A stretch of 64,000 nucleotides of DNA from a virus. Location: positions 32,001-96,000 of IMG/VR virus record IMGVR_UViG_3300042484_002041; one strand, 5' to 3'. Positions 18,320 to 42,967 of the stretch are shown here, piece after piece. Each line of letters starts with the position of its first letter. The first letter of the stretch is position 1. A model generated the notes under the pieces. That model saw only the letters and a program-made list of their open reading frames with translations. It had not been told where the DNA came from and ran no database searches. A program made the translations under genes and the position numbers.

Positions 18320-18640
18320 GGCGCTAGGGAATTAAAAATCCTAGCAAAGTGTGATAAGAGGGAACGAGGCCCTCGCTCTGCACTTTAAACAATGGAGCAA
18401 ACGGGCGTGTTAGGGGCATAAAATCTGTGGCGGGAACGCAGAGAGTCAGATCCTAATAGTAAAGTACATTGGTTGTCAGTGTGCTTTACTATACACATTT
18501 TTTGTAAAAAAGAGTGTGTACAGAGAAGCGCGCCATGATCTAATCTGAAGTCCAAACATCTGATGCGGACGGAACCTGTGTGTTGATTATGCTGCACACC
18601 TCGCAGCACGGAGCCAGGATAGCGTGTTTCTCTGTACCTA
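18320..18640 (+). ncRNA. structured non-coding leader of the tRNA operon
   Basis: series of hairpins with G:U pairs, including long stems 18456-18492 and 18518-18637; no credible ORF. Confidence 0.55.
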
Positions 18641-18650
18641 CTTAATTAAA

Positions 18651-18726
18651 GTCTGGTTCGTCTATCGGTTTAGGACGCTGCCCTTTCAAGGCGGAAAGAC
18701 GGGTTCGATTCCCGTACCGGGCACCA
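18651..18726 (+). tRNA. tRNA-Glu (TTC)
   Basis: cloverleaf, CTGCC-CTTTCAA-GGCGG, CCA. Confidence 0.92.
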
Positions 18727-18732
18727 AATAAT

Positions 18733-18808
18733 CTCTCCCTAGTTCATGTTGGCAGAACACTGGTCTCCAAAACCAGAGAGCGCGGATCGTCACCGTGGGG
18801 GGAGGCCA
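18733..18808 (+). tRNA. tRNA-Trp (CCA)
   Basis: CTGGT-CTCCAAA-ACCAG, CCA end. Confidence 0.9.
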
Positions 18809-18825
18809 AACTTTAAGGAACTGAT

Positions 18826-19605
18826 ATGAAAATCGGTATGTTCGGCGATAGTTATATTGCATACCTAAAAAATACTTGGATAGAGCATCTTAACTCTAAA
18901 TCTCAAGACTACAAGATTCAAACTTACGGCAAAGGCGGATCAAACTTATTCTATGCTATAGATCAGTTCAATCAAGCAGTTGATGTAAGAAAGAAAAAAT
19001 ACGATGTTGTTGTTTTTACATTCACATGGCACCAACGATGGTACAGTGCATGGCGGTATAGAAATGAACAATATTGTGCTTTTAGCGAATCAAGAAAATT
19101 TAGTACATATCAGTCTGTTGTCGAGGCGCACGATCCTTCTATTTACAACGACGATACGGATGCCGAATTTATAGCAACTATCCCGAAATTCTACGAATAC
19201 ATGTACGATGATCGGTGGACTAGATTTAATTACGAATTAGAAGTTAAGTATATTTTAGAACTACCGGATCGTTATCCGGATACCAAGTTTATTTTCTTGC
19301 CAAATACAGAATATTCACAAGACCTAGCAAAGAAACATTTCAACAAGGGTGTATTAGTTGATTTTGCATTTGAAACTGTTAGTATCTCGGAACCCGGGGC
19401 GCCAGCCAAGCTCAAGCCCGGGGAGAGAATTAATGTCGAGCGTGACAACCGACTCGGGCATTTAAATCAAAGCAATCATCGTGCAGTCGGTGAACTAATG
19501 TATGACATAATTTCTAACTACCAGGCAGTGGAAAATAAGATTTATCAAGTTGATTTTGATAAATTTGATATGATATTCCCTACCAAGTCTGTTAGCACAA
19601 CATAA
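18826..19605 (+). CDS. SGNH-like protein inserted in the tRNA array
   Basis: FGDSY, GGSN, GHLNQSNH. Confidence 0.6.
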   Translation: MKIGMFGDSYIAYLKNTWIEHLNSKSQDYKIQTYGKGGSNLFYAIDQFNQAVDVRKKKYDVVVFTFTWHQRWYSAWRYRNEQYCAFSESRKFSTYQSVVEAHDPSIYNDDTDAEFIATIPKFYEYMYDDRWTRFNYELEVKYILELPDRYPDTKFIFLPNTEYSQDLAKKHFNKGVLVDFAFETVSISEPGAPAKLKPGERINVERDNRLGHLNQSNHRAVGELMYDIISNYQAVENKIYQVDFDKFDMIFPTKSVSTT

Positions 19606-19611
19606 GTAAAT

Positions 19612-19686
19612 CGCGGGATAGGAAAGCAGTAATCCGCTTGGCTCATAACCAAGAGATCGGCAGTGCGAGTCTGCCTCCCGCAACCA
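19612..19686 (+). tRNA. tRNA-fMet-like (CAT)
   Basis: C1:A72 mismatch (CGCGGGA/TCCCGCA), CTCATAA loop, ACCA. Confidence 0.85.
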
Positions 19687-19691
19687 AGTTT

Positions 19692-20330
19692 ATGAAACCA
19701 TATTTAATAGTGTACCAAGGCGGAACCTGCGGCAATTTAATGGCAGGCTTAATTCATACGCTACAAACAAATACCGCAGTCGAAGTACGGCAAGATGGAT
19801 CACTACACGAACAGAGGCATGGACCGGTGCACGTATACTATCCGTGGAAAATTCTAATAGAAAATGATCTAAATAAAAATTATAACACTGCACTAACAAA
19901 TATTTTTATTACGCACGATAGAAATATTAGAGACTTTGCATCTAGTAACGATTTAACAGTTATTAAAATCGTATACACAGACGACTCGAAGAAGTTAATT
20001 CGTCAGTTAGTATCAGAAAAAGCACAATTAACTAACCTAAAACAATGGTATCTATCACTTCCGGCCTTGCCGTTCAAGGACGTTGATTTAGATAACATCA
20101 ATGATGATACTAGAGTAGTCAAGTACCTTTATCGATGCTTAGATGATCGTATAGATAACTTTATGGACGCAGTAACATATTATCATCATACTGTTAATTT
20201 TGAAGATATTTGGACAGACAATGAAAATTTACTCAACCAATTGAGTAACATAACTGGATTAAAAAGTAACGAAAAAACAGTGCAATTAATTCAAAATTAT
20301 GTTACTATCAATAATAGATTGTATAAATGA
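19692..20330 (+). CDS. AT-rich hypothetical protein (sulfotransferase/P-loop-like)
   Basis: ATG after the tRNA; YQGGTCGNLM N-terminus. Confidence 0.55.
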   Translation: MKPYLIVYQGGTCGNLMAGLIHTLQTNTAVEVRQDGSLHEQRHGPVHVYYPWKILIENDLNKNYNTALTNIFITHDRNIRDFASSNDLTVIKIVYTDDSKKLIRQLVSEKAQLTNLKQWYLSLPALPFKDVDLDNINDDTRVVKYLYRCLDDRIDNFMDAVTYYHHTVNFEDIWTDNENLLNQLSNITGLKSNEKTVQLIQNYVTINNRLYK

Positions 20331-20367
20331 GTAGCATATCAGCTACCAGATTTTTAAGTAGCACAAT

Positions 20368-20443
20368 TCCGGTCAAGCAAACACGGTGTAGGCAGAGGAC
20401 TGTTAATCCTTGAAGCCTGGTTCGATTCCAGGGACCGGAGCCA
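20368..20443 (+). tRNA. tRNA-Asn (GTT)
   Basis: GAGGA-CTGTTAA-TCCTT, GCCA. Confidence 0.9.
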
Positions 20444-20451
20444 CACATACT

Positions 20452-20528
20452 GCACAGATACCAAAGAGGCCTAATGGCATGGATTGCAAATCCGTTGTTC
20501 GTGAGTTCGAATCTCACTCTGTGCTCCA
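20452..20528 (+). tRNA. tRNA-Cys (GCA)
   Basis: TTGCAAA loop, U73 discriminator, CCA. Confidence 0.9.
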
Positions 20529-20541
20529 AACTCGACACAAC

Positions 20542-20635
20542 GGAAGCGTGGCAGAGCCCGGTTTAATGCACCTGACTTGAAATCAGACGAATGTAGCGAT
20601 ATGTTCCGTGAGTTCGAATCTCACCGCTTCTACCA
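20542..20635 (+). tRNA. tRNA-Ser (TGA)
   Basis: CTTGAAA loop, long variable arm, CCA. Confidence 0.9.
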
Positions 20636-20643
20636 GTTACTGG

Positions 20644-20713
20644 TTGACAATTAAATCCAAGTACGCTATACTAGAGTCATGTTGTCGGTAACTCAGCAAC
20701 AGCTCTTTAAAAA
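20644..20713 (+). promoter_or_regulatory. sigma70 promoter followed by boxA-like antitermination site
   Basis: TTGACA-17-TATACT, short hairpin, GCTCTTTAAAAA (20702-20713). Confidence 0.75.
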
Positions 20714-20742
20714 CACAAGCAAGCGTTTGTAAAGATACAATC

Positions 20743-20827
20743 GCCCGGGTGATGAAATGGTATACATAGAAGACTTAAAATCTTCCGCCGTAATGGCATG
20801 CGGGTTCGAGTCCCGCCCCGGGCACCA
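20743..20827 (+). tRNA. tRNA-Leu (TAA)
   Basis: GAAGA-CTTAAAA-TCTTC, variable arm, CCA. Confidence 0.92.
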
Positions 20828-20836
20828 AACATATAC

Positions 20837-20912
20837 AGGGGTTTCGCCAAGTTGGTAAGGCATCGGATTTTGATTCCGACATGCGGTGGTTCGAATCCAT
20901 CAACCCCTACCA
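20837..20912 (+). tRNA. tRNA-Gln (TTG)
   Basis: TCGGA-TTTTGAT-TCCGA, CCA. Confidence 0.92.
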
Positions 20913-20919
20913 AAATTTA

Positions 20920-20994
20920 GGTCTCAAAGTGTTCATGGACGCATACATGCCTGTCACGCATGAGGAAGGGGATCGTTACCCCTTGGGACCGCCA
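20920..20994 (+). tRNA. tRNA-Asp (GTC)
   Basis: CATGC-CTGTCAC-GCATG, GCCA. Confidence 0.9.
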
Positions 20995-21034
20995 ATTTTT
21001 CATTGGTGCTGTTAGTGATATAGATACCTTAGGT

Positions 21035-21109
21035 GTGACTGTAGTGTAGTGGTCTGCACATTGCTCTGTGAAAGCGATAGTATGGGATCGTTCCCCATCA
21101 GTCACCCCT
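21035..21109 (+). tRNA. tRNA-His (GTG), atypical (no encoded G-1, CCT instead of CCA)
   Basis: GTGACTG/CAGTCAC, CTGTGAA loop. Confidence 0.7.
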
Positions 21110-21160
21110 AAGTTATTTGCGATATGGGATTTTCCCCACTTCACCCCAACATTGTTTTAT

Positions 21161-21234
21161 ACCCGGTTAGCTCAAAGGTAGAGCAATGGCTTGATAAGCC
21201 ATAGACAGAGGATCGTTACCTTTACTGGGTACCA
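21161..21234 (+). tRNA. tRNA-Ile (GAT)
   Basis: ATGGC-TTGATAA-GCCAT, CCA. Confidence 0.9.
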
Positions 21235-21242
21235 ATATACAT

Positions 21243-21318
21243 GCTGCTTTAGCTGATGTGGTCATAGCGGAGGTTTGAAGAACCTTGGAACGTGGTTCGA
21301 TTCCACGAGGCAGCACCA
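21243..21318 (+). tRNA. tRNA-Phe (GAA)
   Basis: GAGGT-TTGAAGA-ACCTT, CCA. Confidence 0.9.
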
Positions 21319-21320
21319 GA

Positions 21321-22049
21321 TTATGGAGTTAGGTCTATCAAAGTTAACACCGAGCTGGCTAAATCTAAATTAGATTTAACTCCATGATGAGATAGGTCTC
21401 GAGCACGATCTAATCCTTTTAATGTGTTTAATTTTACTGGAACAAATTTGCACTCATTCAGTTTACTTACTTGTGCAAGTGCAAGCGTGTTCTTTTCAGA
21501 ATTTAACTGACTGTTAGTATCGACTGATAACCATGTTTTGTAAAACCCTGAATAATAACCAGGAGGAGACACAGGGGTTAAAAATTCTACATACTGTTCC
21601 CCGACTAGTTCAACCCTATGCATGTCAGGCAGTAACAATACTACTATCTTTGGTAAGATTTTAGGAATCCAATACGAGCCTAATCTGTATGCAGTATCGG
21701 TACTGCCGCCGCCCTGCCCAAGATTGTAACATTTTAAATTTAGATTGTCGGCAACAATTGTCGGCCAAGTGTGTTCGATAGGTAGGCCAACCCCAACAGT
21801 GTGACTGCAACCCAGAAATAAAATGCTAGGGTCGTTTGTAAACTCTTCGCACCTGAATGCAAAACTATTAAATTTGTAAGTTATTTCTTGGTTGATCCAT
21901 CCGTTGAGTTCCATCTCCGGACGTCTCAACTTTAAGTTTTCAAGATATCGATCTTCTGTATCCTGCGGTAGCCATTTTACAGTTCTGTTGGCTAATGACC
22001 CAGCGTTATTAAAGTTGTTGATGTAGCATGAATCGTAATTTATTTTCAT
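21321..22049 (-). CDS. SGNH-like protein, antisense inside the tRNA array
   Basis: LGCSHTVG, NLGQGGGS, RDLSHHG; TAAATA just upstream on the - strand. Confidence 0.7.
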   Translation of the reverse strand: MKINYDSCYINNFNNAGSLANRTVKWLPQDTEDRYLENLKLRRPEMELNGWINQEITYKFNSFAFRCEEFTNDPSILFLGCSHTVGVGLPIEHTWPTIVADNLNLKCYNLGQGGGSTDTAYRLGSYWIPKILPKIVVLLLPDMHRVELVGEQYVEFLTPVSPPGYYSGFYKTWLSVDTNSQLNSEKNTLALAQVSKLNECKFVPVKLNTLKGLDRARDLSHHGVKSNLDLASSVLTLIDLTP

Positions 22050-22073
22050 TGAAATATTTATTAGTGTAAGAAT

Positions 22074-22157
22074 GCGGACGTGATGTAATTGGTAGCCATG
22101 CGAGTCTTAGAAGCTCGTGCCTTGTGCGTGAGAGTTCGAGTCTCTCCGTCCGCACCA
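22074..22157 (+). tRNA. tRNA-Leu (TAG)
   Basis: CTTAGAA loop, variable arm, CCA. Confidence 0.92.
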
Positions 22158-22179
22158 TGAGATATATAGTAGTATAAAG

Positions 22180-22254
22180 GCCTGGTTAGCTCAGGGGTAG
22201 AGCGTCTCCTTTACACGGAGAGGGTCCGCGGTTCGAAACCGTGACCAGGTACCA
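22180..22254 (+). tRNA. tRNA-Val (TAC)
   Basis: TCTCC-TTTACAC-GGAGA, CCA. Confidence 0.92.
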
Positions 22255-22260
22255 AAGTTT

Positions 22261-22337
22261 GGTCGGGTATCTTAAGAGGAAGTAGAGCCTCCCTCATAAG
22301 GAGGAATGTGGAGCTTCGAGTGCTCTCCTGACCACCA
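22261..22337 (+). tRNA. tRNA-Met (CAT), elongator-type
   Basis: CCTCC-CTCATAA-GGAGG, CCA. Confidence 0.85.
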
Positions 22338-22351
22338 AGATAGTTTTATAT

Positions 22352-22425
22352 GGGCGTGTAGTATAATGGGATTACGACGGCTTTGCAAGCCGTTTATGGG
22401 AGTTCGATCCTCCCCATGTCCACCA
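22352..22425 (+). tRNA. tRNA-Ala (TGC)
   Basis: G3:U70, TTTGCAA loop, CCA. Confidence 0.92.
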
Positions 22426-22438
22426 TAGTTTTACAAAA

Positions 22439-22528
22439 GGAGAGCGGGCCGGACGGTAAGGCAACTGACTGCTAATCAGTAGAGTGTAGTAATATGCTCA
22501 CAGGGTTCGATTCCCTGGCTCTCCGCCA
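22439..22528 (+). tRNA. tRNA-Ser (GCT)
   Basis: ACTGA-CTGCTAA-TCAGT, long variable arm, GCCA. Confidence 0.92.
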
Positions 22529-22536
22529 AGTTTTTT

Positions 22537-22611
22537 CGGTCTTTAGTTCAATGGATAGAATACGTGGCTTCGAACCATGTGATGGGAGTTCGATCCTCTC
22601 AGGACCGGCCA
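22537..22611 (+). tRNA. tRNA-Arg (TCG)
   Basis: CTTCGAA loop, GCCA. Confidence 0.88.
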
Positions 22612-22641
22612 AGAGTTTTATACTACACAATAGGAAATAGT

Positions 22642-23112
22642 ATGTTAAAGGTAGATGTTCGAGAGGTTGAAGAATTCATGAGCCAGCAAGGCCCTAATAC
22701 TCGAGTCTACTTGGGTGCCGACAGCGAGCGATTCAAGGTCAACGGTGTTTGGTGGGCCGAATACACAGTAGCTGTGGTTATCCACATCAACGGTCGCAAT
22801 GGTTGCAAGATCTTTGGAGAAACTTCCAAGGAACGCGACTACGATCAAAAGTACAATCGTCCCAGCATGCGGCTCATGAACGAGGTGTACCGTGTCAGCG
22901 AAATGTTCCAGCGGCTGCAAGAGATACTGAAAGATCGAGAGGTCGAGGTGCACTTGGATATTAATCCTAGCGAAATGCACGGATCCAGCTGTGTGGTGCA
23001 GCAAGCAATTGGGTACATACGCGGCACTTGCAACGTGATCCCCATGGTCAAGCCAGATGCGTTTGCAGCCAGTTATGCGGCGGATAGGCTAAAGAGCTTG
23101 CTGGCTGCTTAA
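22642..23112 (+). CDS. RNase H-like YkuK/DUF458 family protein
   Basis: VYLGADS, RLMNEV, EVHLDIN, KPDAFAASYAAD; start moved past the tRNA. Confidence 0.75.
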   Translation: MLKVDVREVEEFMSQQGPNTRVYLGADSERFKVNGVWWAEYTVAVVIHINGRNGCKIFGETSKERDYDQKYNRPSMRLMNEVYRVSEMFQRLQEILKDREVEVHLDINPSEMHGSSCVVQQAIGYIRGTCNVIPMVKPDAFAASYAADRLKSLLAA

Positions 23113-23120
23113 ATAGTATC

Positions 23121-23849
23121 ATGCAACTTTGGGTATTTTTTGAGCCTGGCACCGGAGGTGATGGATTGTGTAACCTCCTGGAACAGTCAACAGACTGCAA
23201 TAGCCTAGGCGCAATAAAACAATGGCGTCCGCATCGTTATGTTGATGGTGATTTAAAATTTTGGATGCCAACTCCGGATGTAAAACATTGTTTTCGAAGT
23301 TCTGCTCCTTTTAAACAACACAAAAATCAGTTTCATAACAATTATGTTAACTTGGCTAATCAAGATCAAGGATTTGTAATTATACCATCTCACGGTATCA
23401 ACTTGCGGGCGTTAGAAACAAGCGACTGCCAGGATATATTGACTGCTAATCAAAAAAAAGTTTTGCTATTAAGTAAAGATCGAAAGGCTGCTTTACTTCG
23501 AGCAGAACGAAGTTGTTTACGCGAAATAAAGCCAGCAACGCCAGAATATCTTGACTGTCAGATAAAACAAAAAATTAATATTGATAAATTTGACTCGGTC
23601 GTCTACATTGAGGATTTACGATCGAATTTTGACATCTTTGACAACTTTTGTAACACATTAGGAATTGTTGCAGATAAAAATCACTATGACACCTACCTGC
23701 AACTAATCCGAAGAGAACTTTTTTTTGTATCACCAGGTATAGCATATCACAGTTCTAGAATTGACAAAAACGGAATTCTTCGGTATGATCAAGTTGATCC
23801 AGATATGGTAATAGGTCAAAGAAAAAAATTATTGTTTGACTTGATGTAG
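23121..23849 (+). CDS. AT-rich hypothetical protein
   Basis: TAAATA upstream; FEPGTGGDGL N-terminus. Confidence 0.55.
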   Translation: MQLWVFFEPGTGGDGLCNLLEQSTDCNSLGAIKQWRPHRYVDGDLKFWMPTPDVKHCFRSSAPFKQHKNQFHNNYVNLANQDQGFVIIPSHGINLRALETSDCQDILTANQKKVLLLSKDRKAALLRAERSCLREIKPATPEYLDCQIKQKINIDKFDSVVYIEDLRSNFDIFDNFCNTLGIVADKNHYDTYLQLIRRELFFVSPGIAYHSSRIDKNGILRYDQVDPDMVIGQRKKLLFDLM

Positions 23850-23878
23850 TTGACATCTAATAACAGTTGTGTTATAAT
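23850..23878 (+). promoter_or_regulatory. sigma70 promoter
   Basis: TTGACA-17-TATAAT upstream of tRNA-Gly. Confidence 0.85.
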
Positions 23879-23890
23879 ACATGAATGTAT

Positions 23891-23964
23891 GCGGGATTGG
23901 CATATTGGTTGTGTCCTAGCCTTCCAAGCTAGTCAAAGGAGTTCGATTCTCCTATCCCGCTCCA
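23891..23964 (+). tRNA. tRNA-Gly (TCC)
   Basis: CTAGC-CTTCCAA-GCTAG, TCCA. Confidence 0.92.
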
Positions 23965-23990
23965 TAAATATAAATTAACCGAGGTCTTTG

Positions 23991-24236
23991 ATGAATGTAA
24001 CCCTTAGTCGTGGTACCGGTATTAACACTGAAAAATGCGTGGAAAATGCCGGGGGGAATCGATACAATTTGGTGTTGATTGCTTGCCACCGTGCTCGTGA
24101 CATTGAACGTCATAACATCCAGCGCCAGAAGCAAGCCTACGAAAACCCAATTGTGAGTGCCTTGTTGGACGTGCAAAACGGTACAGTCGGCGAAGAGTAT
24201 CTCAAGCGAATTAAGACGCCTAACAGGCGGGTATGA
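23991..24236 (+). CDS. rpoZ: RNA polymerase omega subunit-like protein
   Basis: NRYNLVLIACHRARDI...NPIVSALLDVQNG matches RpoZ motifs. Confidence 0.7.
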   Translation: MNVTLSRGTGINTEKCVENAGGNRYNLVLIACHRARDIERHNIQRQKQAYENPIVSALLDVQNGTVGEEYLKRIKTPNRRV

Positions 24237-24242
24237 TGTAAT

Positions 24243-24316
24243 GCGGGTATGATGTAATGGTAACCTGAAACCTTGCCAAGGTTTATTCGCGAGTTCGATT
24301 CTCGCTACCCGCTCCA
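24243..24316 (+). tRNA. tRNA-Gly (GCC)
   Basis: AAACC-TTGCCAA-GGTTT, TCCA. Confidence 0.92.
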
Positions 24317-24321
24317 GGATT

Positions 24322-24396
24322 CTGCCCATCGTTCAACGGACAGGACATGGTTCTTCTAAATCCAGAATGGGGGTTCGATTCCCTCTGGGCAGACCA
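24322..24396 (+). tRNA. tRNA-Arg (TCT)
   Basis: CTTCTAA loop (one stem mismatch), CCA. Confidence 0.85.
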
Positions 24397-24419
24397 ATTT
24401 ATATACAAGGATACGCAAA

Positions 24420-24611
24420 ATGACTGAACAACAACAACGAGATGCTGCTATGGAAGAGTTCCTGGCCAAAGGTGGTAAGATTCAACAAGTGGCCACCGGC
24501 GTTAGCGGCAGGATCGAAGGCGTCAACTATTCAGCCTGGGGCGCACCGCGTAAAGCAGGTAGGCCCCCAAACGTGCCCGATACTGCCAAGGTGGACAAAA
24601 CACCAGTCTAA
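24420..24611 (+). CDS. small phage protein (EEFLAKGGKIQ motif)
   Basis: AAGGA RBS. Confidence 0.6.
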   Translation: MTEQQQRDAAMEEFLAKGGKIQQVATGVSGRIEGVNYSAWGAPRKAGRPPNVPDTAKVDKTPV

Positions 24612-24667
24612 TTTGCGATCTGCTGATATTTTTAAAAATTGGTTAAATAGTAAAAAGGATTTATATT

Positions 24668-24955
24668 ATGACTTTAACCAAAGCGGTAGTTGTTGTTTGG
24701 ACTATACCACTAGATACGGAGTTACCGGTACCGGAGACGGTGCCCACGTCCTGTATCACTGCGCTACAAGACAAACTGGCAGCAATGACCGCTGCTGGTC
24801 AAACAGACGGCAAGAAATATTGGTTCGCGCCCCAGGTTACCGAACACCGTTTTACTGATCAAGCAGCAGCTGAAGAATTTGTGTATTACCTAACTCAGGT
24901 ATTTGCGTGTAGTACAGATATTGATTCTACTCACATCAATCCCCTCTACCTCTAA
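24668..24955 (+). CDS. hypothetical protein
   Basis: TAAATA plus AAGGA upstream; terminator AGCGCGG-TTAAT-CCGCGCT-TTTT downstream. Confidence 0.55.
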   Translation: MTLTKAVVVVWTIPLDTELPVPETVPTSCITALQDKLAAMTAAGQTDGKKYWFAPQVTEHRFTDQAAAEEFVYYLTQVFACSTDIDSTHINPLYL

Positions 24956-25011
24956 GCGCCCGGGCTCAGATAACAGCGCGGTTAATCCGCGCTTTTTCAT
25001 GGTAGGCACGG

Positions 25012-25078
25012 TTGACAATTAATTCAACTTGCCGTATAATGCTTGTATGCGTTAAGAGATTAACGCGCTCTTTAACAA
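25012..25078 (+). promoter_or_regulatory. sigma70 promoter, boxB-like hairpin and consensus boxA
   Basis: TTGACA-17-TATAAT; GCGTTAA-GAGA-TTAACGC; GCTCTTTAACAA. Confidence 0.85.
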
Positions 25079-25100
25079 GTCGATGAAAAACATGACTGTG

Positions 25101-25215
25101 AGGTCATATTGAAGCTCTGGTGTAAATGGGCACATCCCCCAAGTACTAGTCTTGGAAAAACGGGGAGAGAACACGCGGCTCCAAAAGCAGATGCGAGTGA
25201 GTTTCAATATGATCT
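25101..25215 (+). ncRNA. stem-enclosed structured RNA
   Basis: AGGTCATATTGAAGCTC / GAGTTTCAATATGATCT 17-bp closing stem with G:U pairs. Confidence 0.55.
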
Positions 25216-25221
25216 TACATT

Positions 25222-25295
25222 GGGTTTGTAACTTAAAAGTAAAGTATCGGACTTTTAATCCGACTAAGAAGGAGCGTTACCTTCCAGACCTACCA
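25222..25295 (+). tRNA. tRNA-Lys (TTT)
   Basis: TCGGA-CTTTTAA-TCCGA, CCA; atypical T-loop. Confidence 0.85.
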
Positions 25296-25531
25296 TATAG
25301 AAATGCATTAGATCCCTTGTATGCTGCTGAACAGGCGCCCCGATCAGCGGCATATATCCCTTTTAGTGTGTTTCTATATGGTATGTGAGGGTGGTATGTA
25401 GGTTGGTAACCATTCCAGCGAGGACCGGGATTCCCAAGCCAGCAACACTGGCTACCATATAGAAACACATTATCATCATAACTGGTTGATAAAAGAGACT
25501 TGACCCTCTGTTAGTGTGTTTCTATATGGTA
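25291..25531 (+). repeat. alternating 20-nt inverted repeats (A-A'-A-A') enclosing three unique segments
   Basis: TACCATATAGAAA(TG/CA)CATTA at 25291 and 25453; TAGTGTGTTTCTATATGGTA at 25364 and 25512. Confidence 0.85.
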
Positions 25532-25621
25532 AGTATTTTAGGGAGTAATGCAGATGTCCTGCATTACTTAAACGACCAAGCTGAGCCGGTGTCCCTTAGT
25601 TAAATTAATGGAAAGTATAAT

Positions 25622-25706
25622 GGACAGGTGGGTGAGTGGTTAAAACCAGGAGACTGTAAATCTCCCGCCTCTGGCTACGTAGGTTCGAATCCTACCCTGT
25701 CCACCA
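25622..25706 (+). tRNA. tRNA-Tyr (GTA)
   Basis: GGAGA-CTGTAAA-TCTCC, variable arm, CCA. Confidence 0.93.
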
Positions 25707-25712
25707 AGATTT

Positions 25713-25787
25713 GGGCTGATAGTGATAATGGGAGCACAGGGCGTTTGCAACGCTTTAGTCGGGGTTCGATCCCCCGTCGGTCCACCA
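25713..25787 (+). tRNA. tRNA-Ala (TGC), second copy
   Basis: G3:U70, TTTGCAA loop, CCA. Confidence 0.9.
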
Positions 25788-25895: not shown

Positions 25896-25896
25896 G

Positions 25897-35557: not shown

Positions 35558-36598
35558 ATGAATCCATATCAAAGTCTGCCAGATTCTGCATTCTGGAAAC
35601 TAGCAGTATCAAGCAAAAGCATGTTTGATGTTGATAATTTATGGGACCCAAAGTTTGACATTCAATCAACTCAAGCCGTAGTAACTTTTGGATCTTGCTT
35701 TTCACAGCATATCGGTTCTGCATTGAAAGCTCGAGGATTTAACTGGCTGAGTACAGAGGCGGCCCCCTGGGGGCTAAGTAAAAAAAATTCTCGTTTGCTA
35801 AACTATGATATTTTCTCTGCGCGAACGGGTAACATCTATACAACATCTTTGTTAAGGCAATGGACCGAATGGGCACTGGGCATTTCTACTGTACCCGACG
35901 AAGTCTGGGTGAAAGATTCTCGCTACTACGACCCTTTTAGGCCGGTAATAGAACCCAATGGATTCGAATCCGAATCGGAAATGAGGCACTCGCAGGCCCA
36001 AGCCATACGGTCGTTTCGAGAAAGCATACTACAAGCCACATACTTTGTGTTTACGTTAGGCTTAACTGAAAGTTGGGTTAATCCACTGGGATATGAATAT
36101 CCCATGTGCCCGGGAACAGCAGCCGGAGAGTTTGATCCCGCTAAACACGAATTTAAGAACCAACAATTTTCGGAGATACTTCAAAATTTACAAAGTGTCA
36201 TATCAATGATGCAGCATGCAAATCCCAGTATCAAGTTTATCTTGACCGTATCACCAGTGCCGTTAACTGCTACTATGTCCAACCGACACGTGTTGGTTGC
36301 AACTACAGAAACAAAATCCATACTTCGCGCAGTTGCTGGCCAGTTAGCAACAAATAACGCACACATCGATTACTTCCCGGGCTACGAACTTGTTAATAGT
36401 CCGATCTTCAAGGGAATATTCTTTGAGCCAAATCAAAGAAATGTAAATCCATACGGAGTTAACTATGTCATGGATATTTTCCTTAAATGCTTAGAGAATA
36501 AATTTGGAAAGTGCCAAAATGCTTTAATCGACCTATTAGTCGAAGATACAGATGAAATATGCGAAGAAGAATTATTAGATGCATTTAAGGAAGGATGA
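35558..36598 (+). CDS. GSCFA-domain protein
   Basis: TFGSCFSQHI, FTLGLTESW, LTVSPVPL, YFPGYE. Confidence 0.85.
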   Translation: MNPYQSLPDSAFWKLAVSSKSMFDVDNLWDPKFDIQSTQAVVTFGSCFSQHIGSALKARGFNWLSTEAAPWGLSKKNSRLLNYDIFSARTGNIYTTSLLRQWTEWALGISTVPDEVWVKDSRYYDPFRPVIEPNGFESESEMRHSQAQAIRSFRESILQATYFVFTLGLTESWVNPLGYEYPMCPGTAAGEFDPAKHEFKNQQFSEILQNLQSVISMMQHANPSIKFILTVSPVPLTATMSNRHVLVATTETKSILRAVAGQLATNNAHIDYFPGYELVNSPIFKGIFFEPNQRNVNPYGVNYVMDIFLKCLENKFGKCQNALIDLLVEDTDEICEEELLDAFKEG

Positions 36599-37311
36599 TG
36601 AAGATTTGTGTTATAGGTAACAGTCATGTGGGATCATTAAAAAGAGGATGGGCCAACATTAATGGCAACTTTCCCGGAATAGAAGTTACATTCTTTGCCA
36701 ACCGAGGTCAGGGTCTTGATAGACTAGGTGTGTGCAATGGAAAACTTTCCCCGAGTGATGCTGTGATGACCCGAGCGCTTGAGGTAACGTCCGGGGGCAA
36801 GAATAATATTGATCCATCAGAGTATGATGTCATCCTTATTTACGGAGCAGGTACCACTGGTGTTAGAGTGGCCAATGATACCCAATTTTATTCAAGAGCA
36901 GTTATTGAAAGTATCTTAACTGACTCTATAATAACCACCACTGGTTTTAGAATCTTAAAAAAATTAAGGGCTATCACTGATAAAGTTATGTTTGTTGGAC
37001 ATGCACCGCTGCCGGCTGCTACTCAAATCTTATCCAACGTGCCGCCCAGTGATTTTATAGACAGAATAGAACGTATTAACAATCTGATTTATCGTCCACT
37101 CAATAGCAAACTAATAATGCAGCCGTTAAGCACTATCGTGAATGGAAATAGTACACATCCAGAGTTGTCAAAAGGATCTAAAAAATTATCAGTTGGCGAC
37201 AGCCAGGATGATCTAGATCATCCTGCAGATGATACTATACATATGAATGCTAGATTTGGCGAGATTTGGTTAACAGAATTTTTAAACAACTACTCCAAAG
37301 GGACCGACTGA
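36595..37311 (+). CDS. SGNH-like protein (partner of the GSCFA gene)
   Basis: IGNSH, DDTIHMN. Confidence 0.6.
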   Translation: MMKICVIGNSHVGSLKRGWANINGNFPGIEVTFFANRGQGLDRLGVCNGKLSPSDAVMTRALEVTSGGKNNIDPSEYDVILIYGAGTTGVRVANDTQFYSRAVIESILTDSIITTTGFRILKKLRAITDKVMFVGHAPLPAATQILSNVPPSDFIDRIERINNLIYRPLNSKLIMQPLSTIVNGNSTHPELSKGSKKLSVGDSQDDLDHPADDTIHMNARFGEIWLTEFLNNYSKGTD

Positions 37312-37428
37312 TGTAAAAGAACATAGCACTAAATATTGGTACTATGAAAAAATACTTGCCTAGATTCTCCTACTGGTCGGGCACAACTAACACTTGACAC
37401 GCAATTAGATTGCTGCTATAATATATAA

Positions 37429-37662
37429 ATGACAACTACAGCAATCCCGGCCAATGGAGTCGATGGCGTGTTGATCTGGGTGCATGGCCTAGACAGATTT
37501 ATGTTTAGAGTTTACAACCCAGATCACACATTCAAAGATTATGACATTGACCACAGTGACCTCTGCGTGACCATCAAAGATCAAGACGCTTACTTCTACA
37601 AACATGATAACGGGTTGCTGACTCTGGATCACAGTCCCGAAACATTAGGAAAAACACTATGA
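37429..37662 (+). CDS. hypothetical protein (leaderless)
   Basis: promoter 37394-37422, ATG 6 nt after the -10 box. Confidence 0.6.
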   Translation: MTTTAIPANGVDGVLIWVHGLDRFMFRVYNPDHTFKDYDIDHSDLCVTIKDQDAYFYKHDNGLLTLDHSPETLGKTL

Positions 37663-38597
37663 ATGACAGAGTCAAGACTCTAGCCGAGCAGGCCGGATTT
37701 AGTTTTTGGGGAGATTGTTTCTTTGTAACCGATCCCAAAAGCACCGGGCTTGCTGAACTAGAAAAGTTCAGCGCACTACTTCTGGATCAGTGCGCAGAAC
37801 TAGTGGGCGGGTATTACGACGAGAGAACTCAGCAGTGGGCAGGTCCCGCTATCAAAGAATATTTTGGGGTCAAGGAATGACTGATCTTGAACTGATGTTA
37901 AAACAACATGATTGGGGCACTGGCGGATACACAGATAGGCCCATGTTAGATAAACTAATCAAGGAAAATCCCGATTCAGGGCCGGCATTGTGGGAGCAAT
38001 ATTGTCCGTGGTCTGATACCAATGGTGGTTACATCATATGGACAACTCGTAGTTGAATCATGAACGCAAGGTTGGAGTCAAATCATGCCAGTTATTAAGA
38101 CCAGTCTAGCAGAAGTAATGAACGATGATCCTAATAGCCCTTTTTGGCAAGCTATGACTTCTACTCCGGCATTCAAACTGTTTGAAAAAGAACTTGACAA
38201 CATCATTGCTGTCAGTTTAAAGTACAATAAGCCATACAACGATCTTACCGCAGAGGAATTGAAGAATGGATAATCGTGCGTTAGTGTTTTCGATACTGGC
38301 AGGTCCAGCGCACTATGCTCACGAGACCGGTAAAGAGATGACCGCTATGATTCCAGGTGGGGTAGGTACACATCGTTGGCAACGTGTGCAGGAGAAAAAA
38401 ATGCTGCGAGCTGTTGATCAACATTTCGACATCATAATGCGGACGTTTACTATCGAGCAAGCGTCTCGTATTGCCAAGACTTGGTTAATACATTATCGAC
38501 TACCACTTGACCCATCTCGATTGAAAAATTTTGATTTGTTTCACGAAAGATGCGGGCCGTGGGTTTTAGAAAATGCCCAACACATCAAGGCTTATTA

Positions 38598-38807
38598 ATG
38601 CGCGGACCACTACTGACATTTCGTGATTGCCCATTCTGTGGACATGACCTCAACGGTGATGACATTATGGACACTGTTTACCCCAGTAATCGTGAGCGCA
38701 CTGCCTGGCAGGTGGTGTGTCAAATATCAGCAACTGGATGTGGTGCTACTGTGTATGGTGAAACTGAAGAAGAAGCCATGGACAATTGGAACAAGAGAAC
38801 ACGATGA
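38598..38807 (+). CDS. Lar-family restriction-alleviation-like Zn-finger protein
   Basis: CPFCG...VVC....GCGA...EEEAMDNWNKR. Confidence 0.65.
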   Translation: MRGPLLTFRDCPFCGHDLNGDDIMDTVYPSNRERTAWQVVCQISATGCGATVYGETEEEAMDNWNKRTR

Positions 38808-39074
38808 AAGACTTGATATATAGACTGCGTGAGCGAGCGCGGATTCGCCGACAGATCCCAACACGCAAGTCAGTCGAAGAAGGCAAGCCAGATCGAATCT
38901 CAGACTTGCTGGAAGAAGCAGCTGATGCAATCGAGCAACTGACTGCTGCTCGGGGCACACAGGGATGGGTGCAACAATGCTTGCCGCTGCACACCGAAGT
39001 ACAAAACGCTCTAGACAGTGCAGACTATAAACAATCTCTGGGCACTGGCCGTAACTAACCGGAATACATACACA

Positions 39075-39908
39075 ATGGCATCACACAATCACTATTGGTC
39101 CTGCACCACGTTTGCCGACTGGCTGCGCGGTACTCCAAAACCCGGCGCCGAGACCAGTTCAGGGTGGCGGGACTGGAGGAAGTCAGCACAGGCTGCACAT
39201 CCGTTTCGCTATTGGTTAGCCGACAAGTCCTTGGACAAGGTGCAGGACATTGTGTACTGGCCTGCGACTGTGCTGTACGATATCAAGCACTACATCAACA
39301 ACCGTTGGGTCACACGAACCCACGCACTTACCAGTTCAAGCCTGCCCCGGGGCAAATGGTGCGATCTTGACTGCCGTATTCTGCACTGTTTGTTTGACGA
39401 GTTGGTGAACCATGTTGAGATTGAACTGGCCTGGAGTAACATTGCTTGGAACAAAGAAGATCGTGTCAAATACAATGTACCATTTTATGCTGCAGGTTGG
39501 TTTAGGTGGCGTGTGTGGCGTTGCCCACAAGCAGGCCTGGACTATCTTGCATGGTCATCAGGGTTAAAACACAACGACGAATGGGACGACAAAGATGGTC
39601 CGGAATACAACAAACCTACCCGACAGGCCGTTGCTGCAACAGAAGTACTGGCGTTGTACGATTGGTGGAAGACCGTAAGACCGGTTCGCCCAGATCCGTA
39701 CGACGCTAGTGGGTGGAGTGAGATATGTGCTCGTCGGCGATCCGAAGACGAGGACTTCTTGGCAGGACTTGAGGATCGCACTGACGAGGAACGAGCCGAG
39801 AGCACCGCAGCCTTGGCCCGGTGTACTGAAATTGAACAGCAGCACGAAGACGAGGACACTGAGATGTTGACCCGTTTGATCCGTGTCCGAAAGAGCCTTT
39901 GGACTTAA
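39075..39908 (+). CDS. conserved phage hypothetical protein (Trp-rich)
   Basis: long ORF ending LIRVRKSLWT. Confidence 0.65.
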   Translation: MASHNHYWSCTTFADWLRGTPKPGAETSSGWRDWRKSAQAAHPFRYWLADKSLDKVQDIVYWPATVLYDIKHYINNRWVTRTHALTSSSLPRGKWCDLDCRILHCLFDELVNHVEIELAWSNIAWNKEDRVKYNVPFYAAGWFRWRVWRCPQAGLDYLAWSSGLKHNDEWDDKDGPEYNKPTRQAVAATEVLALYDWWKTVRPVRPDPYDASGWSEICARRRSEDEDFLAGLEDRTDEERAESTAALARCTEIEQQHEDEDTEMLTRLIRVRKSLWT

Positions 39909-39979
39909 AGTAATACATAACTTTACGCCGCAACCCAGTAAATATTATTATAAAAATAATAATAGTAAGGGTAAGTGGC

Positions 39980-40420
39980 ATGAAATCAACAGAAATAAAT
40001 GCCGGGGCAAAGGCAGCAATAGGAACACTACGTGAGAGCATGGCAGTTGGCAAAGAAGGCGCCAAGATTGTCACGGACATGCAAGCAGAAATTCATGCAG
40101 TTGTTAATCAAGAACGACAGAAGAGAGCCCAGGCTCTCAAAGAAAAAGAACAGCTGGGTAGTCAACAAGAACAAACAGCGTATAGAAAATTCTTAGACCG
40201 CGCCAGGGCCGCTAAAGACACTGCAGACCTGAAGGATCATATAATCAAAACACATGGCCCAAAGAGTTGGGAAGAATTCTTAAAAGTCAAGGCCGAAGTA
40301 GAGAAGCATGACATCGAAGAAGCACGACTGGTCAAGAACGATAAGGACAAGATAAACGATTTGTTCTGGTGGTGCATGGCTGCTGCATTTGTTATAGTTT
40401 ATTTTATATCAGGAGGTTAA
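39980..40420 (+). CDS. coiled-coil protein with C-terminal TM helix
   Basis: hydrophobic C-terminus. Confidence 0.6.
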   Translation: MKSTEINAGAKAAIGTLRESMAVGKEGAKIVTDMQAEIHAVVNQERQKRAQALKEKEQLGSQQEQTAYRKFLDRARAAKDTADLKDHIIKTHGPKSWEEFLKVKAEVEKHDIEEARLVKNDKDKINDLFWWCMAAAFVIVYFISGG

Positions 40421-40542
40421 CATGGGACATGGACGACTGGTAGCTATAATTGTACTTGCATTAATAATGGGATCAGTTGTGCTAAAGCATCAGACCCCCG
40501 AAACGGCTGAACCTCATAAAAAATATCAAAAATAGTCAGACA

Positions 40543-40576
40543 CTGTAATAAAATTGTAACAATTATATGCTATTAT
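40543..40576 (+). promoter_or_regulatory. Pho box promoter
   Basis: CTGTAAT-AAAA-TTGTAAC (consensus CTGTCAT-A/T-CTGTCAC), 10 nt upstream of a TATTAT -10 box. Confidence 0.7.
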
Positions 40577-40611
40577 TATTGTAAATAATGTAACACAAAG
40601 GAGAATACACA

Positions 40612-41607
40612 GTGAAGAAATTATTTGCAGTTTTGCTAGCAGCAGTGTCGATCGGATCAACCGCACAAGAAATTACAGGGGCAGGTGCAACATTCCCCGC
40701 ACCCATCTATGCCAAATGGGCAGCAGATTATAACAAAGCAACTGGTGCTAAGATAAACTACCAAAGTGTAGGATCTGGGGCAGGCATCAAACAAATTGAA
40801 GCCAAGACCGTAACATTTGGCGCAAGTGATATGCCGCTTACTGACGAAAAGTTAAAAGAAGCAGGCCTGTTTCAATTTCCCACAGTGATCGGCGGTGTTG
40901 TTCCGGTGGTCAACATCAAGGGCATTAAGCCGGGTGAACTAAAGTTAACTGGCCCACTGTTGGGCGACATCTACCTGGGCAAAGTTACCAAGTGGGATGA
41001 CCCTGCAATCAAACAACTGAACCCCACAGTGGCACTACCCAGTGATGCTATCATGGTGGTGCGGCGTGCTGACGGTAGTGGTACTACATTTATCTGGACC
41101 AACTACCTGAGCAAAGTGAGCCCCGAGTTCAAAGACAAAGTAGGAGAAGGCACCGCTGTTAATTGGCCCGTTGGCGCCGGCGGCAAAGGCAATGAGGGAG
41201 TTTCTGCATTTGTTTCTAGACTGCCCAACAGCATTGGCTATGTTGAATACGCATATGTCAAGCAGAACAAAATGACCTACGTTCAAGTACAAAACAGTGC
41301 AGGTACTTGGGTTACTCCCAGCGACACTGCATTCAAGGCCGCTGCTGCAGGTGCTACCTGGAGCAAGACATACTTTCAGGTGCTGACCAATCAAGCAGGC
41401 AAAGAATCTTGGCCCATCAGTGGTGCTACATTTATCCTGGTACACTTAAAACCACTCAAGCCAGAAGAGGTCAAGACAGCCCTGAAGTTCTTTGACTGGG
41501 CTTATACATCAGGTGATAAAGCAGCAGATGACCTAGACTATGTTGCACTGCCAGATTCTGTGAAGAATCAGGTTCGTGCTGATTGGAAGCGGTTAGGATT
41601 GAATTAA
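40612..41607 (+). CDS. pstS: phosphate ABC transporter substrate-binding protein
   Basis: [41 protein letters not shown]. Confidence 0.95.
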
Positions 41608-41617
41608 AACAAACAAA

Positions 41618-41700
41618 CCGGGCACACGATTGACTGCCGATGGAACTCGTAACCATCACTTTTCTACAACTAAATATTCCTTTAAAATAAGGAGTTCCCA
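41618..41700 (+). promoter_or_regulatory. putative riboswitch-like leader sequestering the RBS
   Basis: hairpins GGCA..TGCC and GATGG-AACTCGTAA-CCATC; GGAACTC complementary to GAGTTCC in the RBS. Confidence 0.45.
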
Positions 41701-42314
41701 TGTTAAATCGATTGTTTCCCGGGCTTGATCGCTCATTGGCACTGAGGTTAGTGGCCTTCCACACATTCATTATTGCTCTGAGCAATTGGCTTGTGACTTA
41801 TAAATTTACTATCTTTGACCACACCTTGGCTTATGCTGCGTTTACTTTCCCACTGGTGGTTATTGCCACCGACCTTACTGTTCGCCTGATCGGTAAGGAA
41901 ATGGGACAGGCTGTGGTAAGACTCAGCTTTATCCCTGCCATTATTGTCAGCATCTCGGTAGTGGCAGCAGGTGGTGCACCAGAAAGTGTTGCCATCCGAA
42001 TCGGTCTGGGTAGTGGTATGGCCTACCTGGTTGCTACTATGCTAGACGTGTATGTGTTCCAGTACCTGCGCGAGCGATATGAGGCATGGTATGTGGCTCC
42101 TGCACTTAGCAGCGTGGTAACCACCATCATTGACACGTATACATTCTTTGGCACAGCGTTTGCTGGTGGTGCAGACAAGTTCATGGCAGACAACTGGCAT
42201 ATTGTGGCCACAAATCACATTGTGACTAAGATTGTGGTCAGCCTGCTGGTGATCCTGCCAGCGTATGGCATTTTACTAAACTTTTTACAAAAGCGGATAG
42301 CCGCTAAACTCTAA
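41700..42314 (+). CDS. yhhQ: queuosine precursor transporter (YhhQ/DUF165)
   Basis: IIALSNWLV, AFTFP...ATDLTVRL.G, RIGLGS..AY, LDVYVF, IDTYTFF. Confidence 0.85.
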   Translation: MLNRLFPGLDRSLALRLVAFHTFIIALSNWLVTYKFTIFDHTLAYAAFTFPLVVIATDLTVRLIGKEMGQAVVRLSFIPAIIVSISVVAAGGAPESVAIRIGLGSGMAYLVATMLDVYVFQYLRERYEAWYVAPALSSVVTTIIDTYTFFGTAFAGGADKFMADNWHIVATNHIVTKIVVSLLVILPAYGILLNFLQKRIAAKL

Positions 42315-42639
42315 TTATGTCACACTTTATGTTCCGGTTCTGGAATGATCCACAACGTACTGGTCGGTCAAGCCTGCACAACCAAATCCGTTGGCGGCAC
42401 TCTGCACAGGTACCGGGATATCAAGGTGACTCAACTGATCGTGGGCAACCGTGCCGTTTTAGTCGTTGGTATCGGTTGCCCAAACGAGCTCATCAATTGT
42501 ATTGGCGCACACATCAAAATGGCTGACATTCCGTGGTATATGTGGTTGATAGGGGTTGCTAATGTCAGCACTTGGGTGTATACTCTAGTAGTAGCGTGTA
42601 AAGATAGTAGTTATCGGGACAACGCTGAATAAATAAAAA

Positions 42640-42967
42640 GATTGTTGTAATTCCTCTGGATAGAAGGCATGTTGGACGGCGGATCATTCCCGCCCGGGTC
42701 CACCATAAAACATATTCCCATCGTGGAATCTGTGAAACCTAGATAGTATATAAGGCGGTTCCTGCAAGCCTTGAACTGAAAATGCTAGGTAAGGAGTATG
42801 TTTTATAATGGGCCCGAAGTGGTTTCGACAGCGTGAGATATTGAAGGCGGCAACACGGTAGGCGATGACCGTTAATCAAGCAAAACTCATAAATGCAAAT
42901 GATAGCGTTTATTCTTTAGCAGCCTAAACACTGCTTGGGGCGGCTGTGCCTCGCAACAGAAAATAGC
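42640..42967 (+). ncRNA. ssrA: circularly permuted (two-piece) tmRNA, tag ANDSVYSLAA
   Basis: 3' acceptor half (T arm GGCGG/CCGCC, CGGGTCC-ACCA ending 42705) precedes 5' half GGGCCCG (42810) with G3:U70; tag ORF 42895-42927. Confidence 0.9.

Follow-up and report, generated by a model that had tools for sequence, protein, structure and literature searches.

Conserved stems close interchangeable inserts in phage tRNA and tmRNA precursors and may mark excised passenger RNAs

Introduction

The transfer RNA (tRNA) cluster of phage T4 also yields species 1 and 2 (rnaC/rnaD), small structured RNAs that are co-transcribed with the tRNAs and released in processing, and species 1 is reportedly an RNase III substrate in vitro. 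RNA is also removed from the two-piece, circularly permuted transfer-messenger RNA (tmRNA), whose precursors are cut by tRNA-processing enzymes and whose intervening segment is missing from the mature molecule (PMC11915505); two-piece tmRNAs are common in aquatic phages (PMC9004378). Here we describe a family of conserved stems that close unrelated inserts in phage tRNA arrays and in permuted tmRNA genes. Our starting point was a window of 64,000 nucleotides (nt), bases 32,001–96,000 of the 167.6-kilobase (kb) IMG/VR viral contig IMGVR_UViG_3300042484_002041, estimated to be about half complete. An earlier note on this window had listed six long helices with a common core around unrelated RNAs and had proposed a modular system that releases small RNAs from the tRNA and tmRNA transcripts by RNase III cleavage. 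The architecture in that proposal is supported, whereas cleavage by RNase III and the liberation of discrete RNAs are kept conditional here.

The helix is under selection on the tRNA strand, keeps a register on the CCA end of one tRNA and the base before the next (−1), lies in a context of co-transcription and is modular. We regard it as moderately probable that the stems are excised, stem-closed passenger RNA cassettes in tRNA and tmRNA precursors, forming a widespread phage module. Beyond the earlier note, the analysis adds the scale of the family, its tie to tRNA-Lys, tRNA-Gln and tRNA-Glu, the conserved non-Watson–Crick pairs and the rapid replacement of inserts.

Results

One stem family in phage tRNA arrays

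We collected the family by pattern scans of IMG/VR, one with the exact 5' arm (38 loci) and one with the 3' arm (at least 119 stretches). In about 25 of the 38 5'-arm loci the complementary arm follows 27–92 nt downstream, with unrelated sequence in between and always abutting tRNA genes; 11 of the 38, with at most one tRNA gene, are single-arm chance matches and not family members. Pooled, the scans gave at least 246 distinct copies in at least 131 loci (numbered with an L below), all family members coming from uncultivated phages. The stem consensus is thus present in relatives, as the earlier note had expected. All copies lie in tRNA arrays, none having been found elsewhere among the collected loci, and the stems are co-oriented with the tRNAs, which share one strand in 133 of 133 tRNA-bearing loci. 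Most loci were retrieved via the arm sequence, which inflates the figures for arm conservation; an independent sample of 80 loci was picked via a PF04308 protein and not via the stem, and 40 of these 80 contain the element.

The consensus closing helix comprises 18–20 base pairs (bp), 5'-CCAUAUA(A/G)AAACACAUUA ... UAGUGUGUUU(C/U)UAUAUGG-3'. Covariation was assessed in 117 members, one per insert cluster, in which 94% of the cells are paired and 16 of the 18 pairs have changed on both sides. Doubly changed cells number 119, compared with 27.8 ± 3.9 after shuffling, and none of the 500 shuffles reached any of the observed measures; with the register slid by one to three columns, merely 30–61% of the cells pair. 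On the tRNA strand, the 246 copies contain 326 G·U pairs but 37 A·C pairs outside pair 8, in agreement with the observation in the window that pairing is kept through G:U on the plus strand. Whole elements fold better in the sense than in the antisense direction in 140 versus 27 cases (n = 167, P = 4e-19), to which a G+U-rich sense strand would contribute, and the inserts alone do so in 128 versus 39. The helix is real and under selection at the RNA level on the tRNA strand, as had been proposed, and the shuffles together with the covariation rule out an artefact of chance or low complexity.

Within the window all six listed helices were recovered. They fold well below shuffled controls (z −3.5 to −9.8), an inverted-repeat scan finds the same arms, and the predicted helices are nearly uninterrupted, 16–23 bp and about two helical turns long, as RNase III stems are. 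All six 3' arms contain AGTGTGTTT, exactly or with one mismatch (at 18478, 18621, 25196, 25365, 25513 and 42795). The covariance model R1, which represents the 18-bp helix and was built from 15 members (consensus CCAUAUARAAACACAUUA / UARUGUGUUUYUAUAUGG), found 25455–25529 (E 3e-13) and 25293–25381 (bit scores in Table 1); it was marginal for 18454–18493 (15.8 bits, E 0.27), not significant by itself for the tmRNA stem at 42707–42804 (9.2 bits, E 8.4), and reported no match in the window for 18518–18637 or 25101–25215. The proposed common core is therefore found in all six arms and is bridged by homologues, whereas the model is significant for two copies only. We class these two (25291–25383 and 25453–25531) as canonical and the other four as probable diverged relatives, whose membership rests on homologues.

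Several of these homologues come from L180–L184, close relatives of the window phage that are 88–95% identical to it. In close relatives the stem at 18456 shows solely switches from U·G to C–G or U–A, its 5-nt loop varying freely. The neighboring stem at 18513–18642 lies 8 nt upstream of tRNA-Glu(UUC) and encloses an 82-nt branched insert (c1, 18537–18618); in L180, L182 and L183 its arm differences are compensatory or pass via G·U, and c1 is nearly invariant. The 5' arm of the helix at 18518 reads GAAACATGC in L183, nearer to the canonical GAAACACAT than the GAAGCGCGC of the window. The stem at 25097–25219, which ends 2 nt before tRNA-Lys, encloses an 81-nt insert of three hairpins (c2), and this element is 94% identical in L004 and L030 and ~99% in L180–L183, with diverging flanks.

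Outside the collected loci we found few traces of the family. Apart from tRNA and tmRNA, no Rfam 15 family matched at gathering thresholds or at E up to 10, and a BLAST search of the region and one element against 50,697 GenBank phage records returned only chance matches, in coding regions. The family-B DNA polymerase of the contig is 46–50% identical to those of Sinorhizobium phage Phosso and Agrobacterium phage Atu_ph07, both jumbo phages, and R1 found nothing in either genome; queries for relatives with proteins of 357 and 734 amino acids gave no match. A match in Vibrio phage 2.275.O (L178, E 0.024) is a perfect but unrelated palindrome that does not lie in a tRNA array. At L179:1480-1582 (Vibrio phage 2.275.O._10N.286.54.E11, MG592671.1), R1 gave a nonsignificant 17.4 bits (E 0.65) for a weak helix, CAAACACAC...GUGUGUUUG, around a ~50-nt insert ending 5–6 nt before tRNA-Arg(UCU); since this jumbo phage is cultivated, experiments could possibly start from this helix, although it is not significant by R1. 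Scanning 185,579 species genomes with a two-arm pattern gave matches in four short metagenome-bin contigs. We rejected a cellular origin for these: three of the four are tRNA arrays (L161, L163/L164, L165), and L162 is without a tRNA gene.

Register on tRNA ends and association with particular tRNAs

The 5' arm starts on C74-C75-A76 of an upstream tRNA called by ARAGORN in 128 of the 246 copies. At the other end, 44 copies have the terminal GG of their 3' arm as the start of the following tRNA; the helix then ends at the base before G+1, an RNase P site, and A76 is paired with −1, the last base of the spacer. Pairing mostly continues for 1–2 bp more, into positions 73 and 72. In the window, where ARAGORN found 28 tRNAs and Rfam alone added tRNA-Lys(UUU), three stems start on a CCA: 25291 on that of tRNA-Lys, 25453 on the one ending the segment X (below) and 42705 on that of the tmRNA acceptor piece. 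Those at 18456, 18518 and 25101 are found in the leaders of operons, where they do not start on a CCA.

The association is far from even across tRNAs. A stem follows 74% of the tRNA-Lys(UUU) genes (64 of 86 distinct genes), 29% of tRNA-Gln(UUG) and 24% of tRNA-Glu(UUC), while every other isoacceptor is stem-followed in at most 9%, except for the single tRNA-Pro(AGG) gene (1/1); none of 34 tRNA-Lys(CUU) genes is. Behind tRNA-Lys alone, the inserts of the stems belong to 48 clusters. In the sample chosen by PF04308 the values were 14 of 31 for Lys (45%), 9 of 36 for Glu (25%) and 1 of 37 for Gln (3%), with the others at most 7%. Most of the stem-bearing Lys, Gln and Glu tRNAs either open a run of tRNAs behind a gap or promoter or stand behind tRNA-Lys(CUU), and position in the operon is thus an alternative explanation of the bias.

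These patterns invite the idea that the stem regulates the tRNA upstream: by pairing A76 and the discriminator region it could hold tRNA-Lys, tRNA-Glu, tRNA-Gln and the tmRNA acceptor as inactive precursors, with timed release or shielding of the tail. The strong bias to three tRNAs, the usual reach of the helix to positions 73 and 72 and the pairing of A76 as the first base at the tmRNA would all fit, and tRNA 3' tails are reportedly immunity targets (PMC12851939). A regulator of this kind would leave both the diversity and the conservation of the inserts unexplained, as well as the copies located upstream of tRNAs or with non-tRNA segments on both sides (18456–18642, 25097–25219), and we consider it very unlikely.

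The stem in the tmRNA gene

The earlier note had included the intervening segment of the permuted tmRNA in the family, and homologues support this placement. The acceptor piece of the tmRNA ends in CCA at 42703–42705, the coding piece starts at G42810, and the encoded tag is ANDSVYSLAA. The partner of A42705 (A76) is U42806, which precedes G+1 of the coding piece by four bases, and the helix encloses a 74-nt insert, c5 (42719–42792). The arms behind a tmRNA CCA form a graded series that runs from L052, with the exact core GAAACACATTA/TAGTGTGTTTC, through L117 (AAAGCACATA) to the window (ATAAAACATATTCC). The insert also occurs in tRNA spacers: c5 shares 94.6% identity with an insert that precedes tRNA-Gly in L104 and L154–L156, and the same insert type stands before tRNA-Cys in L157, where it is closed by a canonical stem, GCATATATAAACACACC/GGTGTGTTTATATATGC. 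Among its homologues, a GGC/GCC pairing is swapped to GCC/GGC in a compensatory manner. One stem-plus-insert module therefore fills the tmRNA intervening segment here and tRNA spacers in other phages, and by way of L157 and L052 we assign the tmRNA stem to the family. A permuted tmRNA is present in four of the five large stem-bearing contigs.

Inserts are exchanged between conserved arms

When the enclosed sequences were clustered, the 246 copies fell into ~169 insert clusters under one helix, which bears out the claim of one stem family with unrelated, interchangeable inserts; those of both canonical window copies are singletons. Insert length has quartiles of 42, 52 and 71 nt and ranges from 3 to 246 nt, empty copies included (18456–18492, L015 and L119). 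Identical insert types are found between different tRNA neighbors, and near-identical phages carry different inserts. In L180–L184, the elements around c1 and c2 are almost invariant and the junction of tRNA-Lys and stem is kept, but three different inserts follow this junction, with one to three modules behind. The window insert at this junction, c3, changes compensatorily at its tip in L004 and L030 and is replaced as a whole in L180, L182 and L183; the site of c4 holds a different insert in L004/L030 and in L183, again between conserved arms.

Turnover of this kind could also arise at the DNA level, the inverted repeats being the ends of a selfish or recombination-prone cassette in tRNA arrays and RNA folding a by-product. 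The replacement breakpoints coincide with the arms, one insert may occur in different tRNA neighborhoods and in the tmRNA gene, empty copies exist, and the palindromic CCA-UAU-GG at tRNA-to-tRNA junctions could be a target site. On the other hand, the copies share arms and not interiors (169 insert clusters), unlike miniature transposons, and we saw neither a transposase nor a pattern of target duplication. The excess of G·U over A·C and the folding asymmetry fit a transcribed strand, and strict co-orientation with the tRNAs, phasing on CCA and −1 and confinement to tRNA arrays are likewise at odds with a DNA element. We judge it distinctly unlikely as a full account of the stems.

Some inserts and inter-stem segments contain tRNA-like T-arms (GGTTCGAATCC; L183:12100-12480, L129:7946-8044, L046:2336). 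These inserts look like tRNA-derived modules in which the family helix replaces the acceptor stem. A tRNA origin as a general rule was rejected, because by a strict test a T-arm-like hairpin occurs in just 7 of the 169 clusters.

Arm conservation and candidate partners

Two positions of the helix regularly deviate from Watson–Crick pairing. Pair 8 is an A·C mismatch in 118 of the 246 copies (G–C in 44, A–U in 36), pair 16 is a U·G wobble in 168, and both recur in the sample chosen by PF04308. The arms, excluding CCA/UGG, have a mean pairwise identity of 90% compared with 64% for the adjoining tRNA-Lys genes, a contrast that is inflated by the arm-based retrieval. Even so, the arm sequence is constrained far beyond the needs of base pairing.

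Such constraint would be expected if the helix were a handle specific in both sequence and shape for a dedicated phage or host protein, with the inserts acting as decoys, aptamers or regulators and the hypervariable locus next to tRNA-Lys, tRNA-Glu and tRNA-Gln taking part in an arms race, for instance as counter-defense tied to the targets of anticodon nucleases. The arm identity and the fixed A·C and U·G pairs argue for this, as do the turnover of inserts between near-identical phages, the insert types that are kept with compensatory changes across contexts, and the tRNA bias, of which the Lys and Glu parts repeat in the protein-chosen sample and the Gln part does not. The bias may also reflect operon position, and the partner gene is missing where we searched. 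RNase III (PF14622), RtcB and a CCA-adding enzyme are all lacking from the contig of the window; in five related contigs, of which three are complete, there is neither a PF14622 RNase III nor a PF00035 double-stranded RNA-binding domain; and Ro60/TROVE is absent from the window's contig and four related ones. The inserts showed no above-chance antisense 12-mer matches to the phage's own 167.6-kb contig. We hold a dedicated protein handle to be rather unlikely. A stronger form of this idea would make the helix a docking site common to all cassettes of a phage RNA system that has so far escaped recognition: at a hypervariable array, attached for the most part to the 3' end of tRNA-Lys(UUU), more than 160 small structured RNAs would be taken up, exchanged and expressed, a sequence-specific factor would read the A·C and U·G pairs, and the RNAs might serve as decoys or regulators against anticodon or tRNA-tail nucleases or other host defenses. 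This we put forward tentatively, as a similarly improbable account.

One neighboring gene was considered as a partner. An RNase H-like protein (PF04308/DUF458, phrog_11311) with invariant acidic residues is encoded inside the tRNA array, at 22564–23112 on the plus strand, its true start probably lying near residue 25–33, and relatives in 231 IMG/VR contigs recur in tRNA arrays of this type. Its predicted model weakly resembles RNase HI, PIWI and endonuclease V (template modelling score 0.3–0.4; PMC3985635 for the protein), which makes it a candidate RNA or DNA nuclease. As the partner of the stem it was rejected, being absent from one complete 383-kb stem-bearing genome. Also inside the array, an 82-amino-acid open reading frame (23988–24236, plus strand) between tRNA-Gly(UCC) and tRNA-Gly(GCC) resembles the omega subunit of RNA polymerase: it scores 21.5 bits with TIGR00690 (rpoZ), below the 23.6-bit cut-off, has a GNRYNLVLIACHRAR motif and has homologues in the tRNA arrays of 23 other loci.

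Other features of the window

The coordinates of the stems and their neighbors are collected in Table 1. The segment X stands between two family arms and shows no significant simple fold (z 0.0). Its 3' end forms a 6-bp hairpin that continues into the ACCA (25453–25456) opening the next stem; X may be pseudoknotted or tRNA-end-like. The 3' UACCA of the preceding tRNA-Lys likewise forms the first pairs of the stem behind it. At the position of this tRNA, whose T-loop is atypical, L180 and L182 have a canonical tRNA-Lys, and L183 shares the odd version. Within 25364–25472, the 3' arm of the first canonical stem and the 5' arm of the second show 95% complementarity (repeat I4), so that a nested alternative fold is possible, enclosing X instead of the two inserts.

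Two further observations concern other parts of the arrays. The tRNA-His (21035–21108) is bracketed by an 18-nt inverted repeat (21024–21116, plus strand, 89% complementary) that extends its acceptor stem, giving a helix around the tRNA itself. Upstream of the first hairpin, a 45-nt leader stretch (18363–18407, plus strand) is 89–91% identical in L135, L106 and L064 and may be another conserved leader RNA.

Table 1. Positions of stems, inserts and adjoining features in the window
Feature	Coordinates	Strand	Details
Sigma-70-type promoter, TTGACA-17-TATAAT, 12/12 consensus	18289..18317	+	Upstream of first stem cluster, tRNA-Glu/Trp
"Empty" family-like hairpin, 16-17 bp, 5-nt loop	18456..18492	+	Fold (18454-18494) -20.1 kcal/mol, z -6.3
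Seventh short hairpin, ACACAUU/AGUGUGU core, absent from the earlier note	18493..18522	+	Whole-region fold; kept in L180-L183
Diverged stem, arms 18513-18536 / 18619-18642	18513..18642	+	Repeat I3; fold z -4.0
Sigma-70-type promoter, 12/12 consensus	25012..25040	+	Second stem cluster; terminator-like site 24975-24993 just upstream
Diverged stem, CAUAUUGAAGC/GUUUCAAUAUG type	25097..25219	+	Repeat I8; fold z -4.6
tRNA-Lys(UUU), atypical T-loop GAAGG-AGCGTTA-CCTTC	25222..25294	+	Rfam tRNA 52.9 bits; missed by ARAGORN
Canonical member, arms 25291-25310 / 25364-25383, 53-nt insert c3 extending the hairpin	25291..25383	+	Fold z -9.8; R1 45.2 bits
RNA X, 69 nt, between two stems	25384..25452	+	100% identical in L004, L025, L026, L030, L039; present in L183
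Canonical member, arms 25453-25472 / 25512-25531, 39-nt insert c4	25453..25531	+	Fold z -6.5; R1 68.4 bits
Spacer Y with 11-bp hairpin, leads to tRNA-Tyr (25622-25706)	25532..25621	+	Fold z -2.2
Circularly permuted two-piece tmRNA	42592..43018	+	RF01850 145 bits, RF04321 134 bits, ARAGORN
Stem closing the tmRNA intervening segment, arms 42705-42718 / 42793-42806	42705..42806	+	Fold (42701-42810) z -3.5

Discussion

How would stem-closed passenger RNAs be made? The module would be transcribed from strong sigma-70-type promoters within tRNA and tmRNA precursors. Its first pairs consist of the CCA end of a tRNA or tmRNA acceptor piece and its last base is typically −1 of the next RNase P substrate. 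Unless the module were excised, the CCA end upstream could not function, and for a two-piece tmRNA this step would be obligatory. A helix that starts on CCA and ends before G+1 points first to tRNA-processing enzymes, and RNase P would set the 3' boundary wherever a tRNA or tmRNA coding piece follows. As a blunt, stable helix from A76 should block 3' exonucleases, an endonuclease would be needed to free the CCA. It would presumably be a host enzyme that separates the module from the upstream CCA, with RNase III cutting inside the ~20-bp helix as the leading and simplest candidate and RNase E and RNase Z as alternatives. A length of ~20 bp fits RNase III substrates, and cleavage of the helix by RNase III is plausible by analogy with known stems; since we found no phage-encoded RNase III in the contig or in the five related ones, any such enzyme would be the host's, which probably has one. 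This would yield a trimmed tRNA together with a small RNA closed by a hairpin. In the DNA, the conserved arms would double as junctions for swaps of inserts between phages.

Several observations weigh against this account. The stability of the inserts is modest (mean z −0.6, 9% below −2), and some of them may be neutral filler. The elements at 18456–18642 and the 5' side of 25097–25219 do not touch a tRNA, so that RNase P alone could not release them and RNase III would be needed. Being unspecific for sequence, RNase III would leave the ~90% identity of the arms against the 64% of tRNA-Lys unexplained, even if that figure is inflated, and likewise the conserved A·C and U·G pairs. Conservation of this kind suggests an additional specific reader or selection for exchange-competent arms.

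The spacers of phage tRNA arrays are usually annotated as junk. Here they hold an element that is apparently more conserved than the adjoining tRNA, comes with a large set of small RNAs that turns over fast and, in phage tmRNAs, closes the segment that is removed. If it is a device for processing and release, it would represent a new, abundant class of phage small RNAs and offer a portable scaffold for expressing RNAs from tRNA operons; if it is a handle read by a specific factor, it would point to an RNA–protein system not known so far. Among the targets of bacterial anticodon nucleases, tRNA-Lys(UUU) is the best known, and tRNAs for Gln(UUG) and Glu(UUC) are targets of the yeast killer-toxin anticodon nucleases. 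The link to Lys, Gln and Glu may therefore be relevant to defense, and a role in a tRNA-centered arms race is directly testable.

Two types of guide and scaffold RNA were considered and rejected. A bacterial Y RNA bound by Ro60 is contradicted by the absence of an Rfam (YrlA) match at E up to 10 and of TROVE in five contigs. Arrays of CRISPR- or TIGR-type guides have direct repeats and short spacers without structure, unlike the repeats here, which are inverted and pair with each other around structured inserts of 27–246 nt; no effector turned up in the domain searches made, none of which was aimed at effectors.

Among described systems, the intervening segment of two-piece tmRNA is the closest, as one window copy is exactly such a helix-closed segment, running from the acceptor CCA to G+1. 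The difference is that the closing helix here belongs to a family that also fills tRNA spacers and that its insert is portable; we found no description of such a shared stem. The RNase III stems flanking 16S and 23S rRNA and at the early-transcript sites of T7 are similar in that a long-range helix of ~20 bp brackets RNA in a polycistronic precursor. Our stems differ from these in a far more conserved sequence, in their phasing on tRNA ends, in the fixed A·C and U·G pairs and in the absence of a phage RNase III from the contigs searched. The T4 species 1 and 2 are also small structured RNAs within phage tRNA transcripts, but they are two fixed RNAs, whereas here a common adaptor helix serves more than 160 inserts; a relation to them found no support in Rfam or in BLAST searches of the 50,697 GenBank phages.

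The Correia/nemis miniature inverted repeats, whose transcripts are cut by RNase III, share with our family the conserved inverted arms, the RNA hairpins and multiple copies per genome. In contrast to them, the interiors here are unrelated, the copies occur in tRNA arrays only, in phase with CCA, and we saw no transposase that could be their source. We rejected a miniature inverted-repeat transposable element since the copies lack a shared interior, with 246 of them in 169 clusters. The tRNA–microRNA units of murine gammaherpesvirus 68 and the 3'ETS-leuZ RNA of Escherichia coli resemble our elements as passenger RNAs directly behind a tRNA with ends set by tRNA-processing enzymes, but the former belong to another domain of life and the latter is a single-copy spacer, and neither has a universal stem or exchange of cassettes. 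We found no description in the literature, whether we searched with the arm sequences or for stems of phage tRNA arrays. The family is apparently undescribed, and what sets it apart from known processing stems is its universal adaptor helix, the diversity of the inserts, the anchoring on the CCA of tRNA-Lys, tRNA-Gln, tRNA-Glu and tmRNA and the rapid turnover of cassettes.

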